Below, one piece after another: positions 27,356 through 64,000 of a stretch of 64,000 nt of DNA (position 1 is its first letter; each line of letters starts with the position of its first letter). The stretch is from Eledone cirrhosa (Eukaryota): contig OZ024766.1 in the NCBI GenBank assembly GCA_964016885.1, positions 9,424,001 through 9,488,000 on the forward strand. Reading direction: 5' to 3'. The position numbers were made by a program, and so were the translations under genes. The notes below the pieces were generated by a model. The model was not told where the DNA came from. It made no database searches and saw only the letters and a program-made list of their open reading frames with translations.

Positions 27356-28224
27356 CAAATATAAATTATCGAGAATCGCATTTCGGCCCACGAAATAACG
27401 AAAAACAACCTCCGAGATGTGTGGCAAGTGCTCAATGATTCAGATGAACCAGAGCTATAACAAACGTTAAAGACCAAACACACTGAGACGATGGTTAAAC
27501 CATCATCCGCACAGCCAAAAAAAAACGAGCAAGTAATTCGAGTCAAACAAATAAAAATATCTGTGATTGAAAATTTACCCGAACCCCTGGAAGGTTGGTA
27601 AAATCCAGTATTTGGGTTTCTGCGGCTCCTAAATCAAGTACTGTCCGTTTACATAAATAATGTCAGGCTTCTGGTAAGATGATTGAACAAGGAAGCCACT
27701 TTTTCAACAGGTTTTAGTTCAATGCTCATACAAGGAGTGACTATTGCTGACCCCACGCGGGGGATCGGCAAGGGAGGCAACCCTTATATCAGGCGAATGA
27801 ATTCAGTTGTGTATACTTTTGCAAGAATGCAAAAACATCACAAATCGAATAGAGTTCTCAACAGAAGGGGTTAAAGTTAACATAAGCTATTCATTCATAA
27901 ACCAGAGCTATATATTTCCTGGGTAGTTGGGTGAGTGTCTGTGGGTCAGGCAAACTATTAGGGACCTGATCCCTAATGTCATTTGGTATTGCTATTGTGT
28001 TCTGTTGGGGAAACTTCAGCAGTCATTTGGGGAGATTTCTTCTCTATGTCTCTATGAGGAGTTACAGGTCCTTATATGTAAATAAAGTACCAGTCTTGTA
28101 CTGGGGTTGATCCTTCCTCTATATCTTTTTCTAAATGAGAGTCCCCGTCTAAATGCCACTGAAATCAACTTTGCCTTTCATCCAATATAATTAATACCAG
28201 TCAAGTACTGGGGGTCGATTCTTC

Positions 28225-31200
28225 CTCTCTCTCTCTTTGTCTTTCTCTCACACACTCTCACTCTCTCGAACACCCTCTCACATTGTCTGTCTCTCTCAGT
28301 ACAGTGCCTCACTCTCTCTATATCTCTGTGTCTCACTCTCTCTCTCTCTCTCTGTCTGTCTGTCTCTCTCCCTCACACACTGTCACACTCCTTCTCCCTC
28401 ACACTGTCACGCTCTCTCTCTGTCTGTCTCTCTCTCCCTCACACACTTTCACTCTCTCTGTCTCCCTCACACACTGTCAGACTCTCTCTCTCTCCCTCAT
28501 ACACTGTCACACACTCTCTTTCCCTCCCTCACACTCTCTCACACACTGTCACACTCTCTCTCTCTGTCTGTCACACTCTCTCCCTCACACACTGTCACAC
28601 TCTCTCTCTCCCTCACACACTGTCACACACTCTCTTTCTCTCTCACACACTGTCACACTCTCTCTCCTTCATACACTGTCACACTCTCTCTCTCTCTCCT
28701 TCACACACTGTTACACTCTCTCTTTCCCTCCCTCACACACTGTCACACTCTCTCCCTCATACACTGTCACACTCTCTCTCTCTCTCCTTCACACACTGTT
28801 ACACTCTCTCTTTCCCTCCCTCACACACTGTCACACTCTCTCCCTCATACACTGTCACACTCTCTCTCTCTCTCCTTCACACACTGTTACACTCTCTCTT
28901 TCCCTCCCTCACACACTGTCACACTCTCTCCCTCATACACTGTCACACTCTCTCTCTCTCTCTCCTTCACACACTGTTACACTCTCTCTTTCCCTCCCTC
29001 ACACACTGTCACACTCTCTCCCTCTCTCCTTCACACACTGTTACACACTCTCTTTCCCTCCCTCACACACTGTCACACTCTCTCCCTCATACACTGTCAC
29101 ACTCTCTCTCTCTCTCCTTCACACACTGTTACACTCTCTCTTTCCCTCCCTCACACACTGTCACACTCTCTCCCTCTCTCCCTCACACACTGTCACACAC
29201 TCTCTTTCTCTCTCACACACTGTCACACTCTCTCTCCTTCATACACTGTCACACTCTCTCTCTCTCTCCTTCACACACTGTTACACACTCTCTTTCCCTC
29301 CCTCACACACTGTCACACTCTCTCCCTCATACACTGTCACACTCTCTCTCTCTCTCCTTCACACACTGTTACACTCTCTCTTTCCCTCCCTCACACACTG
29401 TCACACTCTCTCCCTCATACACTGTCACACTCTCTCTCTCTCTCCTTCACACACTGTTACACTCTCTCTTTCCCTCCCTCACACCACTGTCACACTCTCT
29501 CCCTCTCTCCTTCACACACTGTTACACACTCTCTTTCCCTCCCTCGACACTGTCACACTCTCTCCTCTCTCCTCTCATACACTGTCACACTCTCTCTCTC
29601 TCTCCTTCACACACTGTTACACTCTCTCTTTCCCTCCCTCACACACTGTCACACTCTCTCTCTCTCTCCTTCACACACTGTTACACTCTCTCTTTCCCTC
29701 CCTCACACACTGTCACACTCTCTCCCTCTCTCCCTCACACACTGTCACACACTCTCTTTCTCTCTCACACACTGTCACACTCTCTCTCCTTCATACACTG
29801 TCACACTCTCTCTCTCTCTCCTTCACACACTGTTACACTCTCTCTTTCCCTCCTCACACACTGTCACACTCTCTCCCTCATACACTGTCACACTCTCTCT
29901 CTCTCTCCTTCACACACTGTTACACTCTCTCTTTCCCTCCCTCACACACTGTCACACTCTCTCCCTCATACACTGTCACACTCTCTCTCTCTCTCTCCTT
30001 CACACACTGTTACACTCTCTCTTTCCCTCCCTCACACACTGTCACACTCTCTCCCTCTCTCCTTCACACACTGTTACACACTCTCTTTCCCTCCCTCACA
30101 CACTGTCACACTCTCTCCCTCATACACTGTCACACTCTCTCTCTCTCTCCTTCACACACTGTTACACTCTCTCTTTCCCTCCCTCACACACTGTCACACT
30201 CTCTCCCTCTCTCCTTCACACACTGTTACACACTCTCTTTCCCTCCCTCACACACTGTCACACTCTCTCCCTCATACACTGTCACACTCTCTCTCTCTCT
30301 CCTTCACACACTGTTACACTCTCTCTTTCCCTCCCTCACACACTGTCACACTCTCTCCCTCATACACTGTCACACTCTCTCTCTCTCTCCTTCACACACT
30401 GTTACACTCTCTCTTTCCCTCCCTCACACACTGTCACACTCTCTCCCTCATACACTGTCACACTCTCTCTCTCCCTCACACACTGTCACACACTCTCTTT
30501 CTCTCTCTCACACACTGTCACACTCTCTCTCCTTCATACACTGTCACACTCTCTCTCTCTTTCCCTCCCTCACACACTGTCACACTCTCTCCCTCTCTCA
30601 CACACTCACACTCTCTCTTTCCCTCCCTCACACTCTCTCTCTCTCTGTCTCCCCCCCCTCTCTCTCACTCAATCCACATCTCTCCATCTCTCTCCCTCTC
30701 TCACACACTCACACTCTCTCTTTCCCTCCCTCACACTCTCTCTCTCTCTGTCTCCCCCCCCTCTCTCTCACTCAATCCACATCTCTCCATCTCTCCATCT
30801 CTCTCCCTCTCTCACACACTCACACTCTCTCTTTCCCTCCCTCACACTCTCTCTCTCTCTGTCTCCCCCCCTCTCTCTCACTCAATCCACATCTCTCCAT
30901 CTCTCCATCTCTCTCCCTCTCTCACACACTCACACTCTCTCTTTCCCTCCCTCACACTCTCTCTCTCTCTCTGTCCCCCCCCCTCTCTCTCACTCAATCC
31001 ACATCTCTCCATCTCTCCATCTCTCTCACACACTCACACTCTCTCTTTCCCTCCCTCACACTCTCTCTCTCTCTCTGTCTCCCCCCTCTCTCTCACTCAA
31101 TCCACATCTCTCCATCTCTCTCCATCTCTCACACACTCACACTCTCTCTTTCCCTCCCTCACACTCTCTCTCTCTCTCTCTGTCTCCCCCCCCTCCTCTC

Positions 31201-31610
31201 TCTCACTCAATCCACATCTCTCCATCTCTCCATCTCTCTCCCTCTCTCACACACTCACACTCTCTCTTTCCCTCCCTCACACTCTCTCTCTCTCTCTGTC
31301 TCCCCCCCCCTCCTCTCTCTCACTCAATCCACATCTCTCCATCTCTCCATCTCTCTCCCTCTCTCACACACTCACACTCTCTCTTTCCCTCCCTCACACT
31401 CTCTCTCTCTCTCTGTCTCCCCCCCTCTCTCTCACTCAATCCACATCTCTCCATCTCTCCATCTCTCTCCCTCTCTCACACACTCACACTCTCTCTTTCC
31501 CTCCCTCACACTCTCTCTCTCTCTGTCTCTCCCCCCCCCTCTCTCTCACTCAATCCACATCTCTCCACATCTCTCCATCTCTCACTCCATCTCTCCATCT
31601 CTCTCTCCCT
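28225..31610. repeat. CT/CA-rich compound minisatellite directly upstream of the last GABPB exon
   Basis: CACACACTGTCACACTCTCT and CACTCAATCCACATCTCTCCATCT modules; source of the spurious 1374-aa and 1115-aa ORFs. Confidence 0.92.
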
Positions 31611-31614
31611 CCAG

Positions 31615-32361
31615 ACACCAGAAGAAGTGACCCCGGAGGAGCGCCACCACCACCACCACCACCAGCAGCAGGCCCCTGCGGGGGAGCCGGACGCCCAGGA
31701 CGAGCTGCGTCGCCAGCTGGAGGAGATGAAGCGCCAGGCGGAGTCGTTCAAGCAGCAGCTGATGGTGAAGGAGCAGGAGGCGGCTGTGTACAAGAGGCGC
31801 CTCACCGAGATGGGCATGGGCAAGGAGGAGGCCGCGACCGGCGTAGCGGGCGATGACGCCGGACACACGGACCTGGGCGGCGGCGGCGTCGTCGTCGAGG
31901 GCGACGCTGTGACCACTGGCGTAGGGGTCATCGTCGAGGAGGAGGCGGAGGGGGGGGAGGAGGAGGAGGATCAAGAAGGGAGCGCGACGGACGTCGTCGA
32001 GGACGAGACCGTGGGCGTCGTCGTTGCCGCGGCGACGGAGGAGGAGGAGGGCGGCGGCGGGCTGGAAGGGGGGGGCGACGCCCCGCCGACCGTGGCCTTC
32101 GTCCCCGGCAACCTGGTCGTCGAGACGGTGACCATCTCGAAGGAGGAGGCGGCGGGGGAGGAGGAGGACGTGGTCGGATGCGAGGCTGTCGCTCCTGGCG
32201 ACGAGGGTGTTGTTGTTGCTGTTGTTGGAGATGATGGTGATGCTGCTGGTGATGATGGTGTTGGTGATGGTGATGGTGGTGGTGATGATGGTGATGGTGA
32301 TGGTGGTGGTGTTGTGGCTATCAAAGATGAACCACTGACCATTAAGACTGAACCAGCTTAG
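31615..32361 (+). CDS. GABPB1: GABPB terminal coding exon 11 (leucine-zipper/tetramerisation helix plus long acidic tail)
   Basis: Acceptor ctccctccag|. DELRRQLEEMKRQAESFKQQLMVKEQEAAVYKRRL matches vertebrate [35 protein letters not shown]. Stop TAG at 32359-32361. Confidence 0.92.
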   Translation, partial: TPEEVTPEERHHHHHHQQQAPAGEPDAQDELRRQLEEMKRQAESFKQQLMVKEQEAAVYKRRLTEMGMGKEEAATGVAGDDAGHTDLGGGGVVVEGDAVTTGVGVIVEEEAEGGEEEEDQEGSATDVVEDETVGVVVAAATEEEEGGGGLEGGGDAPPTVAFVPGNLVVETVTISKEEAAGEEEDVVGCEAVAPGDEGVVVAVVGDDGDAAGDDGVGDGDGGGDDGDGDGGGVVAIKDEPLTIKTEPA

Positions 32362-42756: not shown

Positions 42757-42900
42757 CTATTTCTGAGGCTCCCCTTTGCCATCACATGCGACAATCTTCA
42801 CTTTTTCAACTTTAGCAATTTCTTGGACATCTCGGAACTCCACATTCTCCAAGACAAACGTCCAGACATTGTCACAGAAGCGGTACGTGTTCAAATGTCC
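42757..42900 (-). CDS. GTF2A2: TFIIA gamma, coding exon 3 ([23 protein letters not shown]...[15 protein letters not shown])
   Basis: Invariant TFIIA-gamma motif [10 protein letters not shown]...KVKIVACD; acceptor ctccag|; stop TAG at 42759-42757. Confidence 0.97.
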
Positions 42901-43756: not shown

Positions 43757-43861
43757 CTTAAATGAGACTCTGTTTCGTACACGACTTGCTAGGGCTGCAT
43801 TGATGGCCCTATCAAACTGTAACAGCACCTTAAGGGCAAGTTGTGGGGTTATTTGTCCACA
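43757..43861 (-). CDS. GTF2A2: TFIIA gamma, coding exon 2 ([35 protein letters not shown])
   Basis: Acceptor tttttacag|, donor AAG|GTATGT, 105 nt; matches human [32 protein letters not shown]. Confidence 0.97.
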
Positions 43862-44154
43862 CTGTAAAAAGAGGAAACACATATAACATTATATTCACGA
43901 TCACCATCATATTTCACACACACACACATATATATATATATAATTGTTTCTACTATTGGCACAAGGCCAGAAAATTACCCAGTGCATTACTGGTACTTTA
44001 TTTTATCGACCCCGTAAGGATGAAAGGCAAAGTCAACCTCGGCGGGATATATATATAATGCGATGAAATACCAATGATGGTTGGCAAATCACTGACGAGG
44101 GACTAATTTTATATGTAACCCATGTGCAACCACGCAGTATTCCACTTTCTTCTC

Positions 44155-45011: not shown

Positions 45012-45083
45012 CTGAATAAATTCATCCAGACTTTCTTGTAAAGTGTTTCCAATGGTTGTATTGCGATATAATTGGTAACTCAT
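45012..45083 (-). CDS. GTF2A2: TFIIA gamma, coding exon 1 ([24 protein letters not shown])
   Basis: Matches human [24 protein letters not shown]; donor CAG|GTCAGT. Confidence 0.97.
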
Positions 45084-49572: not shown

Positions 49573-49743
49573 ATGGCGGACGGGATGAGGGCTTCGGAGA
49601 GACAAACTCTGGGACAATTCGCCAAATCGCAGACGAAATACGGAACTGCCAGTATCCCAGTTAGATGGAACTCAAATTTTGTCAAACACAGAGTAGTGTC
49701 TACAGATTCTTTGGTTGGCATCGCCCTTAAATATGGTGTATCG
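49573..49743 (+). CDS. LYSMD2: LysM-domain protein (LYSMD1/2-like), first coding exon A: N-terminus plus first half of LysM
   Basis: ...TKYGTAS...FVKHRVVSTDSLVGIALKYGVS| resembles LYSMD1/2 RSYGS...HRV..GDTLQG.ALKYGVT|. Donor TCG|GTGAGT. The ATG sits in a YY1-like CAAAATGGCGG. Paralogue assignment (1 vs 2) is not resolvable. Confidence 0.88.
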
Positions 49744-51364
49744 GTGAGTGCAGCTTCCATCCTTGTTTTTTCCTTATCTTCTCTTACATTCATCAAAGAT
49801 ATTTGCTTTCAGTTTTACAATAAACAACAACAGCCTTTATTTATTTAAGAGAATAAATAATTGTTTCTACTTTTGGCACAAGGCCAGCAATTATCCGAGT
49901 GTATTACTGGTACTTTATTTTATCGAGCCCGTAAGGATGAAAGGCAAAGTTAACTTCGGCGGGATTTGGACTCAGAATGGCCATAAATAATAACAAATAA
50001 ATATGATGCTTTCAGCTTTTGTCACGAGGTTAGCTACTTAAAGGGGATGGAACGGGTGGGCAGGCGAGTCAGTTGATTAAATCGATCACAGTGAATTACT
50101 GGTACTTTATTTTATCAACGTACACAGAATCAAGGGGCCGTAACTCTATGCCAATTTTTTTTTGAGGGGGAGGTGAAAGTCGATTAAATCGACTTTCACC
50201 TTCCTCCAGTGAATTACTGGTACTTTTATTTTATTGACAGACGTAAGGATGAAAGGCAAAGTTAACCTTGGCGGGATTTGAACACAGAACGTAAAGAGCC
50301 GGACCTCTATGCCGATTTTTGGGGGGAGGGGAAAGTCAATTAAATCAACCTCAGTGTGTTACTGGTACTTTATTTTATCAACCACTGTAAGGATGAAAAG
50401 CAAGATTAACCTCGGCTTCATTTGAATACAGAACGTAAACGGCCGGAACTCTATGCCAATTTTGAGGGCTAGCAATTTGAAGGGATGTGGTGGGGAGTCA
50501 GTTAATAAAATCGACTCCAGTGTATTACTGGTACTTTATTTTATTGACCACCGTAAGGATGAAAGGCAAAATTAACATCGGCGGGATTTGAACAGACAAC
50601 GTAAAGGGCCATAACTTTGTGCCACGAATCAGGGTGTCCGACGCTCTACCGATCACTGCTAATTGTACCGCCTTTATCTATAATTGATAATAAATAAATA
50701 TGGTTTCTGCTTTTGTCACAAGATCACACACACATACACACATACATACGTACACACACATACACACACACATACATACACACACACATACATACAACCA
50801 CACCTACACACAACCACACATGCATACACACACACTTACATACATACACAAACATACAAACATACATACACATACACAAACATACAAACATACAAACACA
50901 CATACACAAACATACAAACAAACACGCATTCATAAAAACACATACACACAAACACATACAAACATACATACAAATACATACAAACAAACACACACACATA
51001 CACAAAAACACATACACACACACACACATACAAACACACACATACAAACAAACACACATACACAAAAACATACACACAAACATACAAATACATAGAAACA
51101 CACACACATACAAACAAACACACATTCATAAAAACACATACACACAAACACACACATACATACATATGATTGTTACTAGTTTTAGCACAAGGCCAGCAAC
51201 TACCGCAGTGTATTACTGGTACTTTATTTTATCAACCCTGTAAGGATGAAAGGCAAGGTTAACTTCAGCGGGATTTGAACTCAGAACATCATAAAGGGAT
51301 GTAACTCTATGCTGCAAAGCAGGGTGTCTGACGCTCTTCCAATATATATCATCATCATCATCAT

Positions 51365-51945
51365 CATCATTTTACGTCCGCTTTTCCCAGCATCTCTCCA
51401 CTCGTCACGGTCCTTCGTCATCTCCACCGTGAGCTTCAATGATCTGAGGTCTGTTCTCACCACCTCCGCCCATGTTTTTCGTGGTCTACCTCTACCACGT
51501 CTTCCTTCAACTGGCATTTCCTGGCACTTCTTCATCCATCGGTCATCCTCCATGCGCATCACATGTCCATACCACCTCAGTCTCCTCTCCCGTACACTAC
51601 ATTCTATCCCTCTCAGACACAGTTTCTCTCTCAACACATTTATGCTGGGTCGTTCACGCACATTTACACTGCACATCCAACGGAGCATGCTTGCCTCATT
51701 TCTCTCCAGCCGTTGCATATCCTCTGCAGTTGCTGCCCATGTCTCACTACCATGCAGCATCGCTCTCCTCACACAGGCATCATACAACCGGCCTTTCATA
51801 CGCAGGGAGAAACCCTTCTTCGTCAGCAGAAGAAGCAGCTCCCTAAACTTCTTCCAACCCGTCCTTATTCTATATACTATGGCCTCGGAACACCCTCCTC
51901 CCATGCTAATCTGATCTCCTAGGTACCGGAAGCTATCCACCACTT
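51365..51945 (-). mobile_element. RTE-clade LINE 3' ORF fragment
   Basis: VDSFRYLGDQI...KGRLYDACVRRAMLHGSETW...RRLRWYGHVMRM...GRGRPRKTW. Confidence 0.93.
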
Positions 51946-52007
51946 CTATATATATATATATTAAAATATAAGTATTAATAAAATAGATGTTCTTTTGATC
52001 AATTAAA

Positions 52008-52058
52008 TTTTATTATACATATTTCGGATGTACAACAGTACGTCCTCATCAGACAAAA
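52008..52058 (-). ncRNA. Type-I hammerhead ribozyme (TTTTAT/ATAAAA family variant)
   Basis: Minus strand TTTTGT-CTGATGA-GGAcGTAC tgtt GTACaTCC-GAA-ATATGTAT-A^ATAAAA. Confidence 0.72.
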
Positions 52059-52234
52059 TATAATGATACATGACATACCCTGAGATGTTAAATGGTTAAG
52101 ATTTAATCAAGGTAATAACTCCTGAAAATCATTTTACCGTTGAGTGCTTCCAATCTACTGTAAAACTCATTCTTTGACATAATCATCGAATATCGTTTAA
52201 CAACTTAATACTTATATATATATATATATATATC

Positions 52235-52880
52235 ATCATCATCGTTTTACGTCCGCTTGTCCCTGCTTGCATGGGTGGGACGGGAACTGTTTCTGGCTTG
52301 ATTTCTACAGCTGGATGCCCTTCCTAACACCAACCTCATTTACAGTGAGTGCTGGGTGCTTTTTTTCCGTGGCACCTCCACGACCACTTTACAGTGGAAT
52401 GATAGGGACTCCAGTCCCTATCATCTCATTTCTACAGCTGAGTAAACTGGAGCAATGTGAAATAAAGTGTCTTGCTCAAGGAAACAACACATCACTCGGT
52501 CTGAGAATTGAACTCACAACCTTTCGATTGCAAGGCCAATGCTCTAACCACTAAGCCATGTGCCTTCACATAATATATATATATATATATATATATATGG
52601 ACCGAGTGATGTGTTGTTTCCTTGAGCAAGACACTTTATTTCACATTGCTCCAGTTTACTCAGCTGTAGAAATGAGATGATAGGGACTGGGGTCCCTATC
52701 ATTCCACTGTAAAGTGGTCGTGGAGGTGCCACGGCAAAAAAGCACCCAGCACTCACTGTAAATGAGGTTGGTGTTAGGAAGGGCATCCAGCTGTAGAAAT
52801 CAAGCCAGAATCAGTTCCCGTCCCACCCTTGCAAGCAGGGGAAAAAGCGGGCGTAAAATGAAATGATGATGATGATGATA
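52235..52880. mobile_element. Head-to-head inverted pair of CORE-type SINEs separated by (TA)n
   Basis: Minus copy 52235-52567; plus 5'-truncated copy 52600-52880. Confidence 0.88.
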
Positions 52881-53184
52881 TGTGTGTGTGTGTGTGTGTT
52901 TGTATTGGTTTATACATCTCGCTTGTAATTTTGGCAATATATACTAAAGTATGTACCAAAGTATATTTTGAGTTATCTCCCTTTTTTTTGTTTTTTTTTA
53001 AATTCATAATTACTATGATTTTATATAATTTTGTGTAGGTGTATATATGTATACATATATACACACATACATACATATATACATATATATATATATCTAT
53101 ATCTATTCTTATAATAAATATATATCATCATCATGATTATCATATAAATATATATGTATATATATATATATATATATATTTATA

Positions 53185-53488
53185 TACGTTATTCCGGGTT
53201 GAATCGGAGGTAACCACAGTAAGTAAGGTACTCAATACATAGCAGAGTATAACAGATTCCTGATGATTTCTAATGAATGAAACAGTTCTAGTCCTGTAGA
53301 ATCTCATCTATATTAAAACTGTTATACTCTGCTATGTATTGAGTACCTTACTTACTGTGGTTACCTCCGATTCAACCCGGAATAACGTACATTTTAGCAC
53401 TCCCTGTGCCCCTTATAACCCAGATTCCTGATGATTTCTAATGAATGAAACAGTTCTAGTCCTGTAGAATCTCATCTATATTAAAACT
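53185..53488 (+). ncRNA. Tandem hammerhead dimer (168-nt unit) with inverted 5' arm; retrozyme/Penelope pLTR-like
   Basis: AGATTC-CTGATGA-TTTCtaatGAAT-GAA-ACAG ttctagtc CTGT-A^GAATCT occurs twice (cores at 53260 and 53428). 53185-53255 is the reverse complement of 53319-53389. Flanked by (TA)n. Confidence 0.78.
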
Positions 53489-53764
53489 ATATATTTATAT
53501 ATATATATATATATATTTATATACATATATATTTATATACATATATATTTATATATATATATATATATATATATAATGTTACATAGTAGAGTTTGCTTCA
53601 TCCTATGCTGCAATATACGCACCTGTATAAATATAAATGAAGTATTTCCGTGGGAAAGGTACAGGAAAATATATATATATATAAATAACATTTACAAGTA
53701 TATTTACACACACTTCAAATCAACCCCCCCGCTCTCTCTCTCCGATAACACCACTTTCTCCACT

Positions 53765-53778
53765 GTTACTATGGAAAC
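53765..53778. promoter_or_regulatory. RFX X-box motif GTTACTATGGAAAC
   Basis: Exact fit to the GTHNYY-AT-RRNAAC consensus, inside a ~250-bp unique island between the two LysM exons. Confidence 0.45.
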
Positions 53779-54264
53779 GACCTTTAACCTCCTCCCCCCA
53801 AAGCAAACAGCCCACTCCTCTGTTGAGCTCACCTCATCTCATGTATATTTAGCCTATGTAGATAAGATAAGTTCTAAACCAAGTAAATCTCCATTGTTTG
53901 AACTGCTGTAGCTACAGTCAGCTCTTCACAGCCTAAAATATACGTTATATATATATATACTCATCATTTTATGTCCGCTTTTCCCTGCTTGCAAGAGTTG
54001 GGCAGGTTCTATTCAGCACAGCATCTCTCCATTTGTCACGGTCCTTTGTCATCTCTTCTACGAACAATCTGAGGTCTGCTCTCAACACCTCCACTCATGT
54101 TTTTCGTGGTCTTCTTCCTTCCACTGGGATTTCTTGACACTTCTTTACCAGCCGGTCATCCTCCATGTCCATACTATCGCAGTCTTCTCTCCCACATACT
54201 ACACTTTATATATATATATATAACATGGTGTTTTTATTAAATATGGATTTGAAAACAATCCTAT

Positions 54265-54600
54265 CATTATTTCATTTTACGTCTGCTTTTTCCCTGCTTG
54301 CAAGGGTGGGACGGGAACTGATTCTGGCTTGATTTCTACAGCTGGATGCCCTTCCTAACACCAACCTCATTTACAGTGAGTGCTGGGTGCTTTTTTTGCC
54401 GTGGCACCTCCACGACCACTTTGCAGTGGAATGATAGGGACCCCAGTCCCTATCATCTCATTTCTACAGCTGAGTAAACTGGAGCAATGTGAAATAAAGT
54501 GTCTTGCTCAAGGAAACAACACATCACCCGGTCTGAGAATTGAACTCACAACCTTTCGATTGCAAGGCCAATGTTCTAACCACTAAGCCATGTGCCTCCA
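54265..54600 (-). mobile_element. Full-length CORE-type SINE
   Basis: Same head, core and tail as other copies; further plus-strand copies at 56127-56410, 57756-58160 and 61075-61405. Confidence 0.88.
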
Positions 54601-55469
54601 TATATAAATGTGGTTGGTGTTAGGAAGGGCATCCAGCTGTAGAAAACCCGCCAGACAGTCCTATGCGAGCAAGACAATCACTCTTGCCTCAAGTGGGAAA
54701 ACTCCCGTCCAAACCCATGCAAGCGTGGAACACGGACGTTAAACGATGATGATGATGATGATATATATATATATATAATCACATGTCTTAGGGGTTAGAG
54801 CATTGGCCTTGCAATCGAAAAGTTGTGAGTTCAATTCTCAGACCAGGCGATGTAAACATTGATGCAATTCAATTCAAGCACTCAACATACTTCTTCCACA
54901 GAGGAATGACGGAGTATATTTAGAATAAAACGCGAAGTAGTTTCAGATGCTAACATCCTTTATTGATAATTGTTTCTACTTTTGGCACAAGGCCAGCAAT
55001 TACCCAGTGTATTACTGGTACCTTATTTTATCGACCCTGTAATAATTGTTTCTACTTTAGGCACAAGGCCAGCAATAATCCCAGTGTATTACTGGTACTT
55101 TATTTTATCGACCCTGTAATAGTTGTTTCTACTTTTGGCACAAGGCCAGCAATTACCCCCAGTGTATTACTGGTACTTTATTTTATCAACCCTGTAATAA
55201 TTATTTCTACTTTTGGCACAAGGCCAGCAATTACCCCAGTGTATTACTGGTACTTTATTTTATCAACCCCGTAATAATTGTTTCTACTTTTGGCACAAAG
55301 CCAGCAATTACCCCAGTGTATTACTGGTACTTTATTTTATCGACCCCGTAAGGATGAAAGGCAAAGTTAACCTCGACTGGATTTGAACTCAGACCGTAAA
55401 GGGAGGTAACTATGCTGGAAAACATGGCGTCCGACTCTCTACTGATACTGCCAATCCTTTATTGATAAT

Positions 55470-55542
55470 GCTGTGATATATATTTCAATGATTCGTGGCC
55501 ACGCGATTCCGTGTACCCAGTGTCATGACCTCATCAGACAGC
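55470..55542 (-). ncRNA. Type-I hammerhead ribozyme with long stem II
   Basis: Minus strand GCTGT-CTGATGA-GGT...ATT-GAA-ATATATAT-C^ACAGC, followed by AATAAA. Confidence 0.62.
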
Positions 55543-55627
55543 TTCTTACATAAGGTTACGTTCCAGAGGCAATCCAAATTGAAACAGAGAGTACTCAATA
55601 TTGTTGAAATGGGGTCCTGACTATTTT

Positions 55628-55707
<80 letters not shown>

Positions 55708-55987
55708 ATGTTACATAGTAGAGTTTGTTTCATCCTATGCAGCAATATACGCACCTGTATGTGTATAAATATAAATGAAGTATTTCCGTGGGAAAGGTAC
55801 AGGAAAAAATATATATATATATATAAGTAGCACTTATATATATACATATATATATATAGATTTTGAATTCATATGACTCCAGTTCCCCAGTGAATTAACA
55901 ACCCAACAAGGAACTGGGCATATCAGAGTATTGACAATATCATACACCTAAACAACATATGTACTTGTCTATACCACACTAATTCAA

Positions 55988-56042
55988 ACTGCCTGAAGAG
56001 GTCACAGCCAAAGATGGCTGTCACTGAAATATATATAGCAGT
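55988..56042 (+). ncRNA. Type-I hammerhead ribozyme
   Basis: ACTGC-CTGAAGA-GGTcACAGCCA aaga TGGCTGTcACT-GAA-ATATATAT-A^GCAGT, immediately followed by AATAAA. Confidence 0.78.
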
Positions 56043-56091
56043 AATAAACGAAGCTAAATTTTAATCATTTGACTTTTATTTAACTTTATTT

Positions 56092-56125
<34 letters not shown>

Positions 56126-56432
56126 GGTTCAATTCTCAGACCGGGTGATGTGTTGTTTCCTTGAGCAAGACACTTTATTTCACATTGCTCCAGTTTACTC
56201 AGCTGTAGAAATAAGATGATAGGGACTGGGGTCCCTAACATTCCACTGTAAAGTGGTCGTGGAGGTGCCACGGCAAAAAAGCACCCAGCCCACACTGTAA
56301 ATGAGGTTGGTGTTAGGAAGGGCATCCAGCTGTAGAAATCAAGCCAGAATCAGTTCCCGTCCCACCCTTGCAAGCAGGGGAAAGCGGATGTAAAATGATG
56401 ATGATGATATATGTATATAGATAATATATAAT

Positions 56433-56470
<38 letters not shown>

Positions 56471-56621
56471 TACATTGACAATGGAAATCTTATTGATGAA
56501 ATAAAGTTGAACTATCAGAGATAAGGGTTGTCTTTGTCACAGTCACATTAAGAGCTACATATATATATATATGTATATATATATATGTGTATCTATATGT
56601 ATGTATATATATATGTATGTG

Positions 56622-56658
<37 letters not shown>

Positions 56659-56671
56659 GTGTATATATATG

Positions 56672-56702
<31 letters not shown>

Positions 56703-56728
56703 GTATATATATATATACCTAAAATATA

Positions 56729-56762
<34 letters not shown>

Positions 56763-56815
56763 CCTAAAATATATGTATATGTGTATATATATATATATAT
56801 ATCACCTAAAATATA

Positions 56816-56864
<49 letters not shown>

Positions 56865-56931
56865 ACACATATATATATATATATACACATATATACATAT
56901 ATATATACACACACATATATATATACACACA

Positions 56932-56991
<60 letters not shown>

Positions 56992-57004
56992 CACATACAT
57001 ATAC

Positions 57005-57067
<63 letters not shown>

Positions 57068-57084
57068 CACATACATAATTATAC

Positions 57085-57126
<42 letters not shown>

Positions 57127-57194
57127 TCCCACAAAATATACAACACTTTGATTAGAATGCTGTTGAAGTGTGTATACATTTTTTGGGAACATCC

Positions 57195-57259
<65 letters not shown>

Positions 57260-57640
57260 CACCTCTCAAAGGCGATGACACACGACCGTGACCTCTGGCG
57301 TCACGCAGTAATACAGAGTACCCGACCTCCCATGGGTACAAGCTTAAGCATATAGACAATATGCCCCCACACCCTCCTACTGCAAGGTGGTCGTGGAAGT
57401 GCCACGGCAGAAAAGCACCCAGCCCACACTGTAAAGTGGATGTGTAGGGGCCACGAAAAAGCACCCAGCACTCACTGTAAATGATGTTGGTGTTAGGAAG
57501 GGCATCCAGATGTAGGTATCAAGCCAGAATCAGTTCCTGTATGAGCAAGGCATGGTCAGCCGACCAGACACTGCCCACAACAGGACAACCCGTCTAACCC
57601 ATGATAGCGTGGAAGAACGGACGTAAAACGGTGATGATGA

Positions 57641-57758
<118 letters not shown>

Positions 57759-58679
57759 AGGCACATGGCTTAGTGGTTAGAACATTGGCCTTGCAATCGA
57801 AAGGTTGTGAGTTCAATTCTCAGACCGGGTGATGTGTTGTTTCCTTGAGCAAGACACTTTATTTCACATTGCTCCAGTTTACTCAGCTGTAGAAATGAGA
57901 TGATAGGGACTGGGGTCCCTATCATTCCACTGCAAAGTGGTCGTGGAGGTGCCACGGAAAATAAAAAGCACCCAGCACTCACTGTAAATGAGGTTGGTGT
58001 TAGGAAGGGCATCCAGCTGTAGAAATCAAGCCAAATCAGTTCCTGTATGAGCAAGGCATGGTCAGCCGACCAGACACCGCTCACAACAGGACAACCCGTC
58101 TAACCCAAGCTAGCATGGAAGAACGGACGTAAAACGGTGATGATGATGATGATGATGATGATACACACAGTGATAAAAGTTTTTTTTTCTTATTTTGCTT
58201 TGTTTGACGCGTCCAATCTTTAGCCTATCTCTGACGTTGAAGGCAGAGAGCCAGACATTCATACCTAAATATATGTCGGGTGTGCCAACGACTCCCTCGG
58301 GTGACATACACTATACCGAGAATTGGTTACATGGAACATGGAATGATAAGGTAGTGGGTTCAGATCCTTGGAGCAGGTAGGTACTGTCGTGCTGTGTTCC
58401 TGAGCAAGACACCTCATTTCATTATAGGGCTCGGATCTCACCCCCAGCTCATTAAAATAAAAATACTGAAGGAATGTCGAATAAGAACGCACAGGAGCAG
58501 GGGGCCAGCTACACCTACCTAGCTGTGATGTGTATCAAACATACATATATATCTCACCGCTGGCCTCTGTCTATGACAGGGTGGTAGTAGTACACAATAA
58601 GCCTAAGCCCCTTCACCACAAGGACATAAGAAGACTTAATAATCATCACTTGAGAGCGCATATATACAACAGCAACTTG

Positions 58680-59790
58680 ACAGGGCTGGGGTCCCTATCA
58701 TTAAAACACCCTAGAAACCTTTGAGATACAACCTTGTAGGAGGTCAGCTAAACCTACATAGGTGTGAGATGTAACAACATGATAGGACTGGGGTCCCTAT
58801 CATTAAAACACCCAAGAAACCTCCTATGAGATGCAACCTTGTAGGAGGCCAGCTAAACCTACATAGGTGTGAGCTGTAACAACATGATAGGACTGGGGTC
58901 CCTATCATTAAAACACCCTAGAAACCTTTGAGATACAACCTTGTAGGAGGCCAGCTAAACCTACATAGGTGTGAGCTGTAACAACCTGATAGGACTGGGG
59001 TCCCTATCATTAAAACACCCTAGAAACCTTTGAGATACAACCTTGTAGGAGGCCAGCTAAACCTACATAGGTGTGAGCTGTAACAACCTGATAGGACTGG
59101 GGTCCCTATCATTAAAACACCCTAGAAACCTTTGAGATACAACCTTGTAGGAGGCCAGCTAAACCTACATAGGTGTGAGCTGTAACAACCTGATAGGACT
59201 GGGGTCCCTATCATTAAAACACCCTAGAAACCTTTGAGATACAATCTCATAGGAGGCCAGCTAAACCTACATAGGTGTGAGCTGTCACAACAACAACAAC
59301 ATGATATGACTGGGGTCCTTATCATTAAAACACTCAAGAAACCTCCACTGCTCTACAACTGCGCAGAACGCCAACTAAACCTACATATGTCATGACGTGA
59401 CAGGACTGGGGTCTTTATCACTAAAATACTCATGAGATACAACCAAACAGGACACCAGCTAAACCTACATAGGTGTAAGCTGTAATATGACAGGACTGGG
59501 ATTTGTATCGTTAAAATATTCAAAACACCTCCTACGAGATACTACAAACTGGACACCAGGTAAAGCTACATAGGTGTGAGTTGTATATCATGATAGGACT
59601 GGGAAATTTATCACTAAAACACTCAAGAAACTTCCTACGAGATATAACCAAACTGGACAGTAATTAAACCTCCATTGGTGTAAGCTGTAATATGACAGGA
59701 CTGGGATCTTTATTGTTAAAATATTCAAAAAACCTCTTACAAGATATAATCAAACTGGATGCCAGCTAAACCTACATAGGTGTGAGCTGT
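58680..59790. repeat. 102-bp tandem repeat derived from a SINE tail, diverging towards its 3' end
   Basis: TGATAGGACTGGGGTCCCTATCA recurs at 58885, 58987 and 59089; monomeric relative at 39310-39420. Confidence 0.88.
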
Positions 59791-59895
59791 AAACTTCATT
59801 TTTCATATATTTTTTCTCACTATTTTTTTTTCTATTATCTTTCACGCATCCACTCATCATTATACACACCATTCATTGTACACAAACAGTTACTC

Positions 59896-59991
59896 ATGTC
59901 GCAGCTAAAAGACTTAGGTGGACAGTATATTCGCCACACTATTCACAACCAGGAGTCCTTAATAGGTATAGCACTAAAATACCAAGTTTCA
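59896..59991 (+). CDS. LYSMD2: LysM-domain protein, alternative exon B: a second, different first half of LysM (MSQLKDLGGQYIRHTIHNQESLIGIALKYQVS)
   Basis: H.......SL.GIALKY.VS| aligns with exon A. Consensus donor TCA|GTAAGT; acceptor AG at 59888-59889 after a ~100-nt AG-free, pyrimidine-rich tract. Confidence 0.8.
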
Positions 59992-60227
59992 GTAAGTATT
60001 GTTAACTTTTTGGGGGTACCACATTTCTAACGAAATACACCGCGGGGTAGATGAGGGAGGGTTTGGTCTGGCAGGGTCGGGGTTATGGTTTTGGGAATAA
60101 TTTTCTTCCACATATGTTGTAAATACATGCAATACTTGTCCCTCTCTTTCTCTCATACACTGATTTATGTACACACCTTACCTTCTCCCTGCTGCACACA
60201 CATACATACACATCAATGTATTTCTCA

Positions 60228-60286
<59 letters not shown>

Positions 60287-60380
60287 TAACCAAAGATTAA
60301 TATGGTTCATTGATTACTCAATGAATATAGTTTTTACAATAGATTAAAAGCACTCTACAGTGAAGTTTTCTGGAGTTATT

Positions 60381-60660
60381 AATATTATTCAGAATATTAA
60401 TAAATGAAGAAATTCACATAATCAAAATATATGTTTTATTATATATATTTCGAAGGTACTGTGCTGTTTTTTCAGTACGTCCTCGTCAGATAAAATACAT
60501 GAATTGATGTAAGACCGTTTGGGAATGTCATACATTAATTCATGTATTTTATCTGACGAGGACGTACTGAAAAAACAGCACAGTACATTCGAAATATATA
60601 TAATAAAACATATATTTTGATTATGTGAATTTCTTCATTTATTAATATTCTGAATAATAT
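60381..60660. ncRNA. Inverted repeat (~130-bp arms) holding two divergent hammerhead ribozymes (60434-60495 minus; 60547-60608 plus)
   Basis: TTTTAT-CTGACGA-GGAcGTACTG...CAGTACaTTC-GAA-ATATATAT-A^ATAAAA on each strand. Confidence 0.75.
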
Positions 60661-60844
60661 ATATATATATATCAATGATATAAATAAATGGAAACTATAT
60701 TTATAAAACCATATATATGGTTTTATAAATATAGTTTCCATTTATTTAATATCATTGATATTATACTCCAGAAAATCTGTCGAGTGCTTCGAATCTGTTA
60801 TAAATATATTTGTTGAATTACCAACAAATTAAATATCCCTTTTG

Positions 60845-61074
<230 letters not shown>

Positions 61075-61424
61075 TGGAGGCACATGGCTTAGTGGTTAGA
61101 GCATTGGCCTTGCAATCGAAAGGTTGTGAGTTCAATTCTCAGACCGGGTGATGTGTTGTGTCCTTGAGCAAGACACTTTATTTCACATTGCTCCAGTTTA
61201 CTCAGCTGTAGAAATGAGATGATAGGGACTGGGGTCCCTATCATTCCACTGCAAAGTGGTCGTGGAGGTGCCACGGCAAAAAAGTACCCAGCACTCACTG
61301 TAAATGAGGTTGGTGTTAGGAAGGGCATCCAGTTGTAGAAATCAAGCCAAAATCAGTTCCCGTCTCACCCTTGGAAAAGTGGACGTAAAATGATGATGAA
61401 ATGATGATATATATATATATATAA

Positions 61425-61795
61425 TGTGGGTAGATTAGAGAGAAACGAAGCCTGCATGCTCCGATGGATGTGTAATAGTAATATACGCGAATGGCAAAGC
61501 ATAAATGAATTGAGAGAGAGACTGAGCATAAGAGGAATCAAATGCTGTGTGCAGGAGAGGCGGTTGCGTTGGTATGGACATGTGATGCGTATGAAGGATG
61601 ACAGCTCCATAAAAAGGTGCAGAGCACTAGAAGTCGATGGAAACCGCGGAGTGGGGAAACCCAAGAAGACCTGGGATGAGGTGATAATAGCCGACCTTAC
61701 CCATTTACACCTCTCAAAGGCGATGACACACGACCGTGACCTCTGGCGCCACGCAGTAATACAGAGTCACCGAACTCCCATGGGTACAAGCTGAA
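61425..61795 (+). mobile_element. RTE-clade LINE 3' fragment fused to a SINE-type tail (to ~62095)
   Basis: LERNEACMLRWMC...RRLRWYGHVMRMKDD...GKPKKTWDEV. Confidence 0.88.
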
Positions 61796-62474
61796 GCATA
61801 TAGACAATATGCCCCCACACCGTCCCACTGCAAGGTGGTCATGGAGGTGCCACGACAAAAAAGCACCCAGCCCACACTGTAAAGTGGACGTGTAGGCGCC
61901 ACGGAAAAAAAGCACCCAGCACTCACTGTAAATGAGGTTGGTGTTAGGAAGGGCTTCCAGCTGTAGAAATCAAGCCAAATCAGTTCCTGTATGAGCAAGG
62001 CAGGGTCAGCCGACCAGACACTGCCCACAACAGGACAACCCATCTAACCCATGCTAGCATGAAAGAACAGACGTTAAACGGTGATGAAGATGATGGGTAA
62101 ACATATTATCCCATTACAATTAGTAATTAAATGCTGTTAATCCTTGATTGTTATATATAAAGTGTATATATATATATATATATTTATACACATACACACA
62201 TATATATATATATAGTCATACATATAAATAAATAAATGTATGTGTGTGTTGGTGTTAGCAAGGGCATCCAGCCGTAGAAAACCTACCAGATAGTCCTATA
62301 CCAGCGAGACACGGTCACCCGACCAATCTTGCCTCAAGTGGGACAACTCCCGTCTAACCCATGCTAGTGTGGAAGATGGACGTTAAACGAAGATGATGAT
62401 GATATATATTTATACATATGTATAGATATGTATGAATGTGTGTGTATGAGTATATATATATATATATCTATCTA

Positions 62475-62705
62475 GGGTGGGTAAAATTCCCGAGATCCAT
62501 GGACGAGTTCTCTCCAGCGGTCTCTGTCCCTCATTATCGCTGCCATGTCCTGCGTCTCCAACAGACCAGTGTCTGTCCTTAGGGCATCAACATACGTTAA
62601 CCTTGGTCTTCCTCTTCCAGTGTGTCCATGTAGGGGCTCCCACAGGAGCACTGAGTGCAATGTCAACTCTGGATGTCGGTGAGCATGTCCAGCTAACCTC
62701 AGTCT
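62475..62705 (-). mobile_element. RTE-like LINE 3' fragment
   Basis: RLRLAGHAHRHPEL...LLWEP.HG...RGRPRLTYVD. Confidence 0.8.
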
Positions 62706-62706
62706 A

Positions 62707-62742
<36 letters not shown>

Positions 62743-64000
62743 CACACTCATACATATATAAACACATAAACACTCACATGTATATGTATATATATATATG
62801 TATATACAAATATATATACACACTCACATATATAAACACATAAACACTCGCATATATATGTATATATATGTATATACAAATATATATATACACAATCACA
62901 CATATAAACACATAAACTCGCATATATATGTATATACAAATATATATATACACAATCACACACATATATATAAACACATACACTCGCATATATATGTATA
63001 TACAAATATATATATACTCACTCACATATATATAAACACATACACTCGCATATATATGTATATATATATGTATATACAAATATATATATACACAATCACA
63101 CACATATATAAACACATATACACTCGCATATATATGTATATATATATGTATATACACAATCACACACATATATATAAACACATATACGCTCGCATATATA
63201 TGTATATATATGTATATACAAATATATATATACACAATCACACACATATATATAAACACATAAACTCGCATATATATGTATATATATATGTATATACAAA
63301 TATATATATACACACTCACAAACATATAAACACATATACACTTGCATATATATGTATATACAAATATATATATACTCACTCACACATATATAAACACATA
63401 CACTCGCATATATATGTATATATATATATGTATATACAAATATATATATACACACTCACACACATATAAACACATATACACTCGCATATATATGTATATA
63501 TATATGTATATACAAATATATATATACACTCACACACATATAAACACATATACACTCGCATATATATATGTATATATATATGTATATACAAATATATATA
63601 TACACAACCACACACATATATATAAACACATATACACTTGCATATATATGTATATACAAATATATATATACTCACTCACATATATATAAACACATACACT
63701 CGCATATATATGTATATATATATGTATATACAAATATATATATACACAATCACACACATATAAACACATATACACTCGCATATATATGTATATATATATA
63801 TGTATATACACAATCACACACATATAAACACATATACACTCGCATATATATGTATATACAAATATATATATACTCACTCACACATATATAAACACATATA
63901 CACTCGCATATATATGTATATATATATGTATATACAAATATATATATACACTCACACACATATAAACACATATACACTCGCATATATATATGTATATATA
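62706..64000. repeat. TA/CA-rich degenerate minisatellite
   Basis: Recurrent TAAACACATATACACTCGCATATATATGTATATACAAAT unit running to the window end. Confidence 0.9.

Follow-up and report, generated by a model that had tools for sequence, protein, structure and literature searches.

The locus examined here raises the question of whether a gene of the octopod Eledone cirrhosa joins different exons, each encoding the first half of a LysM domain, to one shared second half. The original prediction described two such exons, A and B, in the 64-kb window (the whole stretch of DNA that was analysed) and proposed that both are spliced onto a single second half. We searched the window together with the next 200 kb downstream, 264 kb of an assembly of 3.0 Gb. 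Positions above 64000 continue the window numbering, and contig positions are obtained by adding 9424000. The following features were located.

49573..49743, plus strand: exon A, the ancestral start exon, encoding a LysM first half; 171 nt, own ATG, phase-0 donor GTGAGT
59787..59887, plus strand: AG-free zone of 101 nt before exon B, with a branch-point-like TTCTCAC at 59814 and a distal pyrimidine tract
59896..59991, plus strand: coding part of exon B, an alternative start exon encoding a LysM first half; 96 nt, own ATG, donor GTAAGT
59992..64000, plus strand: intron after exon B, continuing past the window end
78976-79122 (contig 9502976-9503122; L005:4976-5122), plus strand: exon C, a third start exon about 15 kb past the window
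89171-89553 (contig 9513171-9513553; L006:5171-5553), plus strand: shared exon, whose phase-0 start encodes the second LysM half, located by profile match
95438-95546 (contig 9519438-9519546; L007:1438-1546), plus strand: likely alternative last exon, ending EADC, recognised by that ending
96211-96682 (contig 9520211-9520682; L007:2211-2682), plus strand: main last coding exon

Exon layout of the LysM gene

Exons A and B were found as described. Each has its own ATG and a GT donor, and the two stop at one and the same KYxVS position, in phase 0. Exon A encodes the conserved N-terminal E..YG motif followed by LysM β1 and α1, and exon B measures 102 nt if it is counted from the AG at 59888-59889. 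A profile built entirely from non-cephalopod first halves (44 of 44) revealed scores of 37.0 bits for A, 26.7 bits for B and 18.9 bits for C over the 264 kb. The next match scored 9.2 bits and the best match in a reversed-sequence control 8.4 bits; the three halves stand so far above both that they are not chance matches. Exon C and the shared exon lie beyond 64000, outside the DNA on which the original prediction was based. Across the whole window and the 200 kb after it, no further first-half variant rose above background, and elsewhere in the genome only a weak match was obtained (contig C4, E 3.4).

The second-half profile matched a single exon in the 264 kb with a score of 66.4 bits (next match, 9.1 bits), and the genome-wide search returned one match each for the second half, A and B. 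This lone second-half exon indicates one gene, and tandem paralogous genes were ruled out on the same ground. Between A and B there is indeed no second-half exon, and the arrangement that had been named as contradicting the prediction, a separate second-half exon for each first half, was not what we found. The introns leading to the shared exon span 39.4 kb from A, 29.2 kb from B and 10.0 kb from C, and the products predicted with the main last exon comprise 341, 316 and 333 aa, respectively. Several variable exons of equal phase lie upstream of one constant exon, and we hold this layout, three first halves and one shared second half in one gene, with high confidence. With 3 variable exons in 264 kb, it is not a large variable-exon array. 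The shared half that had been predicted is supported by the genome search, by the isoforms of Octopus bimaculoides and by contigs of a relative, but there are three variable halves rather than two. The Pfam LysM genome search missed the split domain and returned two other places. An unsplit LysM exon was observed elsewhere, on the minus strand of contig C23:9522127-9522237 (L002; 33.5 bits).

A TFIIA-gamma gene was observed on the minus strand of the window (45012-45080, 43790-43867 and approximately 42780-42900), in head-to-head orientation to exon A. The ATG of exon A lies 4.5 kb from the first coding exon of this gene, which sets a limit to how far the LysM gene can extend in the 5′ direction; the two genes may share a promoter region. 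The window also contains, at 28163-32361, a 3.1-kb stretch without AG on the plus strand, which begins with low-complexity CT/CA repeats; the ORFs of more than 1100 codons in this stretch are probably spurious.

The AG-free zone before exon B had been taken as evidence of regulation. The zone and its TTCTCAC are present, but AG-free zones of at least 95 nt occurred 52 times on the plus strand and 46 times on the minus strand of the window, so that by length the zone is indistinguishable from background and was rejected as a regulatory mark. The 20 bases upstream of the AG of exon B contain 11 pyrimidines, a value that 41% of all AGs reach, versus 14-17 of 20 at the three downstream acceptors. 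A distant-branch-point rule, written post hoc after exon B had been seen, was fitted in the window by nine AGs on the plus strand, including that of B, and by four on the minus strand; between A and the shared exon, nine AGs fitted, including those of B and of the shared exon. Because such zones are common, the pyrimidine content is poor and the rule fits other AGs, the acceptor at B is only a candidate, and a functional acceptor at 59888-59889 is possible. Judged from its sequence, the zone could belong to an acceptor that works with a distant branch point and follows a non-coding leader exon, or it could be a pyrimidine-rich stretch of 5′ UTR. Exon B may have its own start site, or transcripts may enter it by splicing from a non-coding leader. 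A tandem satellite with units of approximately 70-77 nt was observed within 58800-59790 of the window and stops right at the AG-free zone, and its last unit before exon B was very abundant in the sequencing runs labelled X1-X4. Among sequencing runs of unrecorded kind, exon B was without cover in 4 runs and exon C in 2 of those, which speaks neither for nor against their use.

At the 3′ end, many mollusc orthologues have a second C-terminus with an acidic tail and a Cys (DTDC, DTEC, ETCC). The likely alternative last exon of E. cirrhosa was located by its ending alone, a profile search for it having given no match; combined with three starts, it would make up to six isoforms possible. That the terminal Cys is a lipidation site is speculation. 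His/Ser/Gly/Pro runs enlarge the shared and last exons compared with O. bimaculoides (L006:5350-5385, L007:2250-2540).

Predicted isoforms in octopods and their spread in molluscs

The O. bimaculoides cluster contains four members, three of which are the RefSeq isoforms X1, X2 and X3 (XP_052833590-592), which are automatic predictions. All three map to one 18.6-Mb contig; they start, each at its own Met, with an A-type, a C-type and a B-type half, respectively, and are identical in sequence from the junction onward. In E. cirrhosa, exons B and C have their own Met where these isoforms start, with intact frames and donors. Whole-exon identity was 55/57 for A (X1), 33/49 for C (X2) and 20/32 for B (X3), the last being the conservation in a related species that the original prediction had asked about for exon B, and the LysM half of the shared exon was identical at 24 of 26 residues. 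Between the two octopods, B and C were 63-67% identical and A was 96% identical, and in B and C the LysM core residues stay in frame.

In a relative, Logan contigs of at most 1.3 kb carried an A-type half (P0012, partial) and a C-like half (P0011, P0013) with an identical remainder, and exons joined on contigs this short are most simply explained by spliced RNA. Each protein contained exactly one variable exon in both the O. bimaculoides models and the contigs of the relative. The isoform with A and B halves in tandem, which had also been proposed, was absent from the four-member O. bimaculoides cluster and among the proteins of 119-382 aa. For E. cirrhosa itself, we infer the splicing of A, B and C from these orthologues, by which the three are likely used as mutually exclusive start exons of one LYSMD1/2-type gene.

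The junction was surveyed in 251 proteins, of which 135 (of up to 400 aa) had a parsable junction. Proteins were grouped when at least two shared the same 40 residues after the junction, giving 17 groups. More than one first half was found in four of these, namely Octopus, the relative (Logan contigs) and two Biomphalaria sets. The other 13 differed only elsewhere; they comprised Magallana, scallop, Mercenaria, Haliotis, Patella, Babylonia, Liolophura, decapod crustaceans, a weevil and a bivalve-like record, for which isoforms missing from the annotation are weak evidence for lack of a switch, and the survey covered 15 of the 83 members of the Magallana cluster.

In Biomphalaria glabrata (XP_013067988/989), the first half of X1 is A-type and that of X2 is a short alternative start, with the switch at the same junction. 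Four accessions exist for the X2 protein, consistent with several leaders or tails that are not translated. Bulinus and Plakobranchus proteins also carry the snail alternative type, and the alternative halves of Biomphalaria and Bulinus are identical over 22 residues. A tree of 22 columns placed cephalopod B and C together (89/97) and apart from the snail alternatives (92/88); a joint origin of the cephalopod and snail alternative halves was not rejected (p-AU 0.174). Two different LYSMD1/2-type proteins on different contigs were observed in Candidula unifasciata (P0044, P0032), which suggests a gene duplication in this species.

The exchanged half domain and its possible role

The AlphaFold model of the B-type O. 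bimaculoides X3 revealed a strand (residues 10-15), two helices (22-29 and 33-40) and a second strand (53-57). This β-α-α-β core had a pLDDT of 89-96, although the alignment behind the model is mostly A-type and thus favours a good fold. The junction, after residue 32, falls between the two helices. The top Foldseek match of the model was the human LysM structure 2DJP (E 1.2e-3), which was also the best solved-structure match in a sequence search (E 1.8e-10). The variable exon would accordingly supply strand 1 and helix 1, and the shared exon is predicted to supply helix 2 and strand 2.

Residues 1-30 of the A-type model were of low confidence. Y23 and G24, which lie in this segment, were invariant in the 45 A-type proteins chosen, as was N65 (45/45), and G49 was present in 44 of 45. 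Such invariance within a disordered tail suggests that the YG motif serves to bind a partner. Exons B and C lack this motif, as do all alternative halves. Among 83 distinct first halves from the stored proteins, 73 had the YG motif, with Gly at helix-1 position 49 in 72 and Arg in the remaining one, from a chiton; the 10 without it comprised five that keep Gly, which look like truncated A-type models, and five alternative halves with Ser (four) or Ala (one). With exons B and C of E. cirrhosa added to these five, the helix-1 glycine was lost in 6/7 alternative halves across cephalopods and snails, always to Ser or Ala. The swap is not universal, as exon B of E. cirrhosa keeps Gly; exon C has Ala, and the B residue differs between the two octopods. 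In Drosophila, the two red alleles carry G51S and N67H; the excerpts of PMC5068940 describe both sites as conserved from rice to man. The 16-residue spacing of G49 and N65 equals that of G51 and N67, and, taken with the conservation, G49 apparently corresponds to the residue mutated in this pigment mutant.

All three O. bimaculoides isoforms passed the Pfam LysM cut-off (26.6-32.9 bits), which single exons of E. cirrhosa did not reach. The nearest relatives are LYSMD1/2-named proteins, and the likeness extends past LysM, including a conserved helix after the linker. Hydropathy was scanned over five exon products and four isoforms, and neither a signal peptide nor a membrane helix was found (maximum 0.99 over 19 residues). 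Judging by its domain, its relatives and the lack of a membrane segment, the gene is a member of the LYSMD1/2 (red/lmd-2) family, and its protein looks cytosolic. LYSMD3/4 differ in this respect. Squid LysM2 is likewise reported to have no hydrophobic segment (PMC10844198).

Worm LMD-2 and mammalian LYSMD1/2 are reported to associate with GLO-3/HPS1, a subunit of the Rab32 exchange factor, and to raise the activity of that factor, and their loss to enlarge gut granules and melanosomes; the excerpts of that paper (PMC11289520) give the HPS1 binding without assigning it to a part of LYSMD. As far as the excerpts of PMC11289520 and PMC5068940 go, the orthologues of worm, fly and mammals have an intracellular role in the biogenesis of lysosome-related organelles, fly red being a pigment mutant (PMC5068940). 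Rab32 and HPS genes also act in fish iridosomes, and the excerpts of that paper mention neither LYSMD nor cephalopod chromatophores (PMC13079938).

Because the protein looks cytosolic and its orthologues activate Rab32, an adjustment of Rab32 activation is more probable than a diversification for immunity. We consider it reasonably probable that exclusive start-exon choice yields three cytosolic versions of a cofactor that tune Rab32/38 on lysosome-related organelles. Each start exon would be driven by a separate promoter or preceded by a separate non-coding leader; A, which lies head-to-head with TFIIA-gamma, would be the general form, and B and C would be confined to some cell types. The missing YG motif and the mostly replaced helix-1 glycine are predicted to weaken or redirect binding of the HPS1-type exchange factor or Rab32, a role of the first-half swap deduced from sequence. 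B and C would then act as cofactors of adjusted or reduced activity on particular organelles, for example pigment granules; a pigment-cell role of the isoforms is a guess.

A broader proposal is that cephalopods and heterobranch snails, separately or by shared ancestry, swap half the LysM of a Rab32 exchange-factor cofactor by promoter choice, installing the glycine change of the fly pigment mutation as a normal isoform and setting how large certain cell-type-specific organelles are or what they become, chromatophore pigment granules or ink melanosomes for example. We regard this as doubtful.

The same three isoforms can be read otherwise. The original prediction placed the domain in a pattern-recognition setting, and a cytosolic sensor of peptidoglycan or chitin fragments, its specificity set by the variable half, would follow if the swap alters glycan binding. 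The fold matches sugar-binding LysM domains, and the variable exon encodes strand 1, the next loop and helix 1, which we take to be part of the usual LysM sugar groove. A crayfish LysM gene affects antimicrobial responses, as summarised in PMC5068940, a shrimp LysM has an antimicrobial effect according to a title cited in PMC10844198, and squid LysM2 was classed by homology as a cytoplasmic recognition protein (PMC10844198). The pattern-recognition framing is doubtful and a glycan sensor improbable: the signal peptide or anchor of a surface or secreted LysM receptor is absent by hydropathy, orthologue genetics and biochemistry indicate organelle biogenesis (PMC11289520, PMC5068940, both in part), zebrafish LysM mRNAs were unresponsive to bacteria as summarised in PMC5068940, and a repertoire of three variants is small.

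Alternatively, the start exons might mainly be new promoters for tissue-specific expression, with the protein changes in B and C amounting to relaxed drift between equivalent forms. The much faster divergence of B and C than of A between the octopods and the differing glycine of B speak for drift. On the other hand, the same near-invariant glycine was lost in six of seven alternative halves, always to Ser or Ala, the YG is missing in all, and the alternative half is unchanged over 22 residues between Biomphalaria and Bulinus; we consider this reading unlikely. Still less credible, and in our judgement highly improbable, is that B and C are cassette exons or remnants, either with B spliced after A as an extra half domain or with both barely used. 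The AG before B is in frame with exon A and has a distant-branch-point-like layout; however, no A+B form was among the O. bimaculoides proteins retrieved, and B and C have intact frames and donors and their own Met at the isoform starts.

Three natural versions that differ only in the domain first half and the N-terminal motif would form a ready set for mapping the exchange-stimulating surface of LYSMD1/2, and the isoforms are a concrete candidate for cephalopod specialisation of pigment and secretory organelles. If the three forms are equivalent, they are ordinary alternative promoters, already present in the automatic annotation.

Comparison with known systems

The RefSeq isoforms of O. bimaculoides and B. 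glabrata likewise join different LysM first halves to one remainder at the same junction. They are automatic models; the present analysis adds how the exons are laid out in the genome of another octopod, how the motif and the glycine vary, and in which groups the switch occurs. A literature search, with subscription journals mostly outside its reach, found no paper describing a LysM half switch; pearl-oyster LysM4 and LysM6 have transcript variants, with no such half-domain detail in the excerpts of PMC13663368. LYSMD1/LYSMD2, C. elegans LMD-2 and Drosophila red (CG12207) resemble the octopod protein in having a single N-terminal LysM, no membrane segment and 2DJP as the best structure. The intron that splits LysM appears old, as arthropod-like fragments also read through at that position. 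In fly red, which has two N-termini, both mutated residues are found in both isoform classes (G51/G74, N67/N90; PMC5068940, in part); the red switch therefore appears to lie upstream of the domain, unlike that of the octopod. The word "isoform" is absent from the main text of PMC11289520.

In clustered protocadherins and UGT1A, duplicated variable first exons are joined to constant exons, and in arthropod Dscam, alternative exons encode half a domain. The octopod gene has no sign of the large array or stochastic choice of protocadherin- or Dscam-type diversification. It is similar to all three systems in placing variable exons on constant exons, and to Dscam in its half-domain exons; it differs from them in that three variants, serving as start exons rather than internal cassettes, alter a cytosolic domain of 45 residues.
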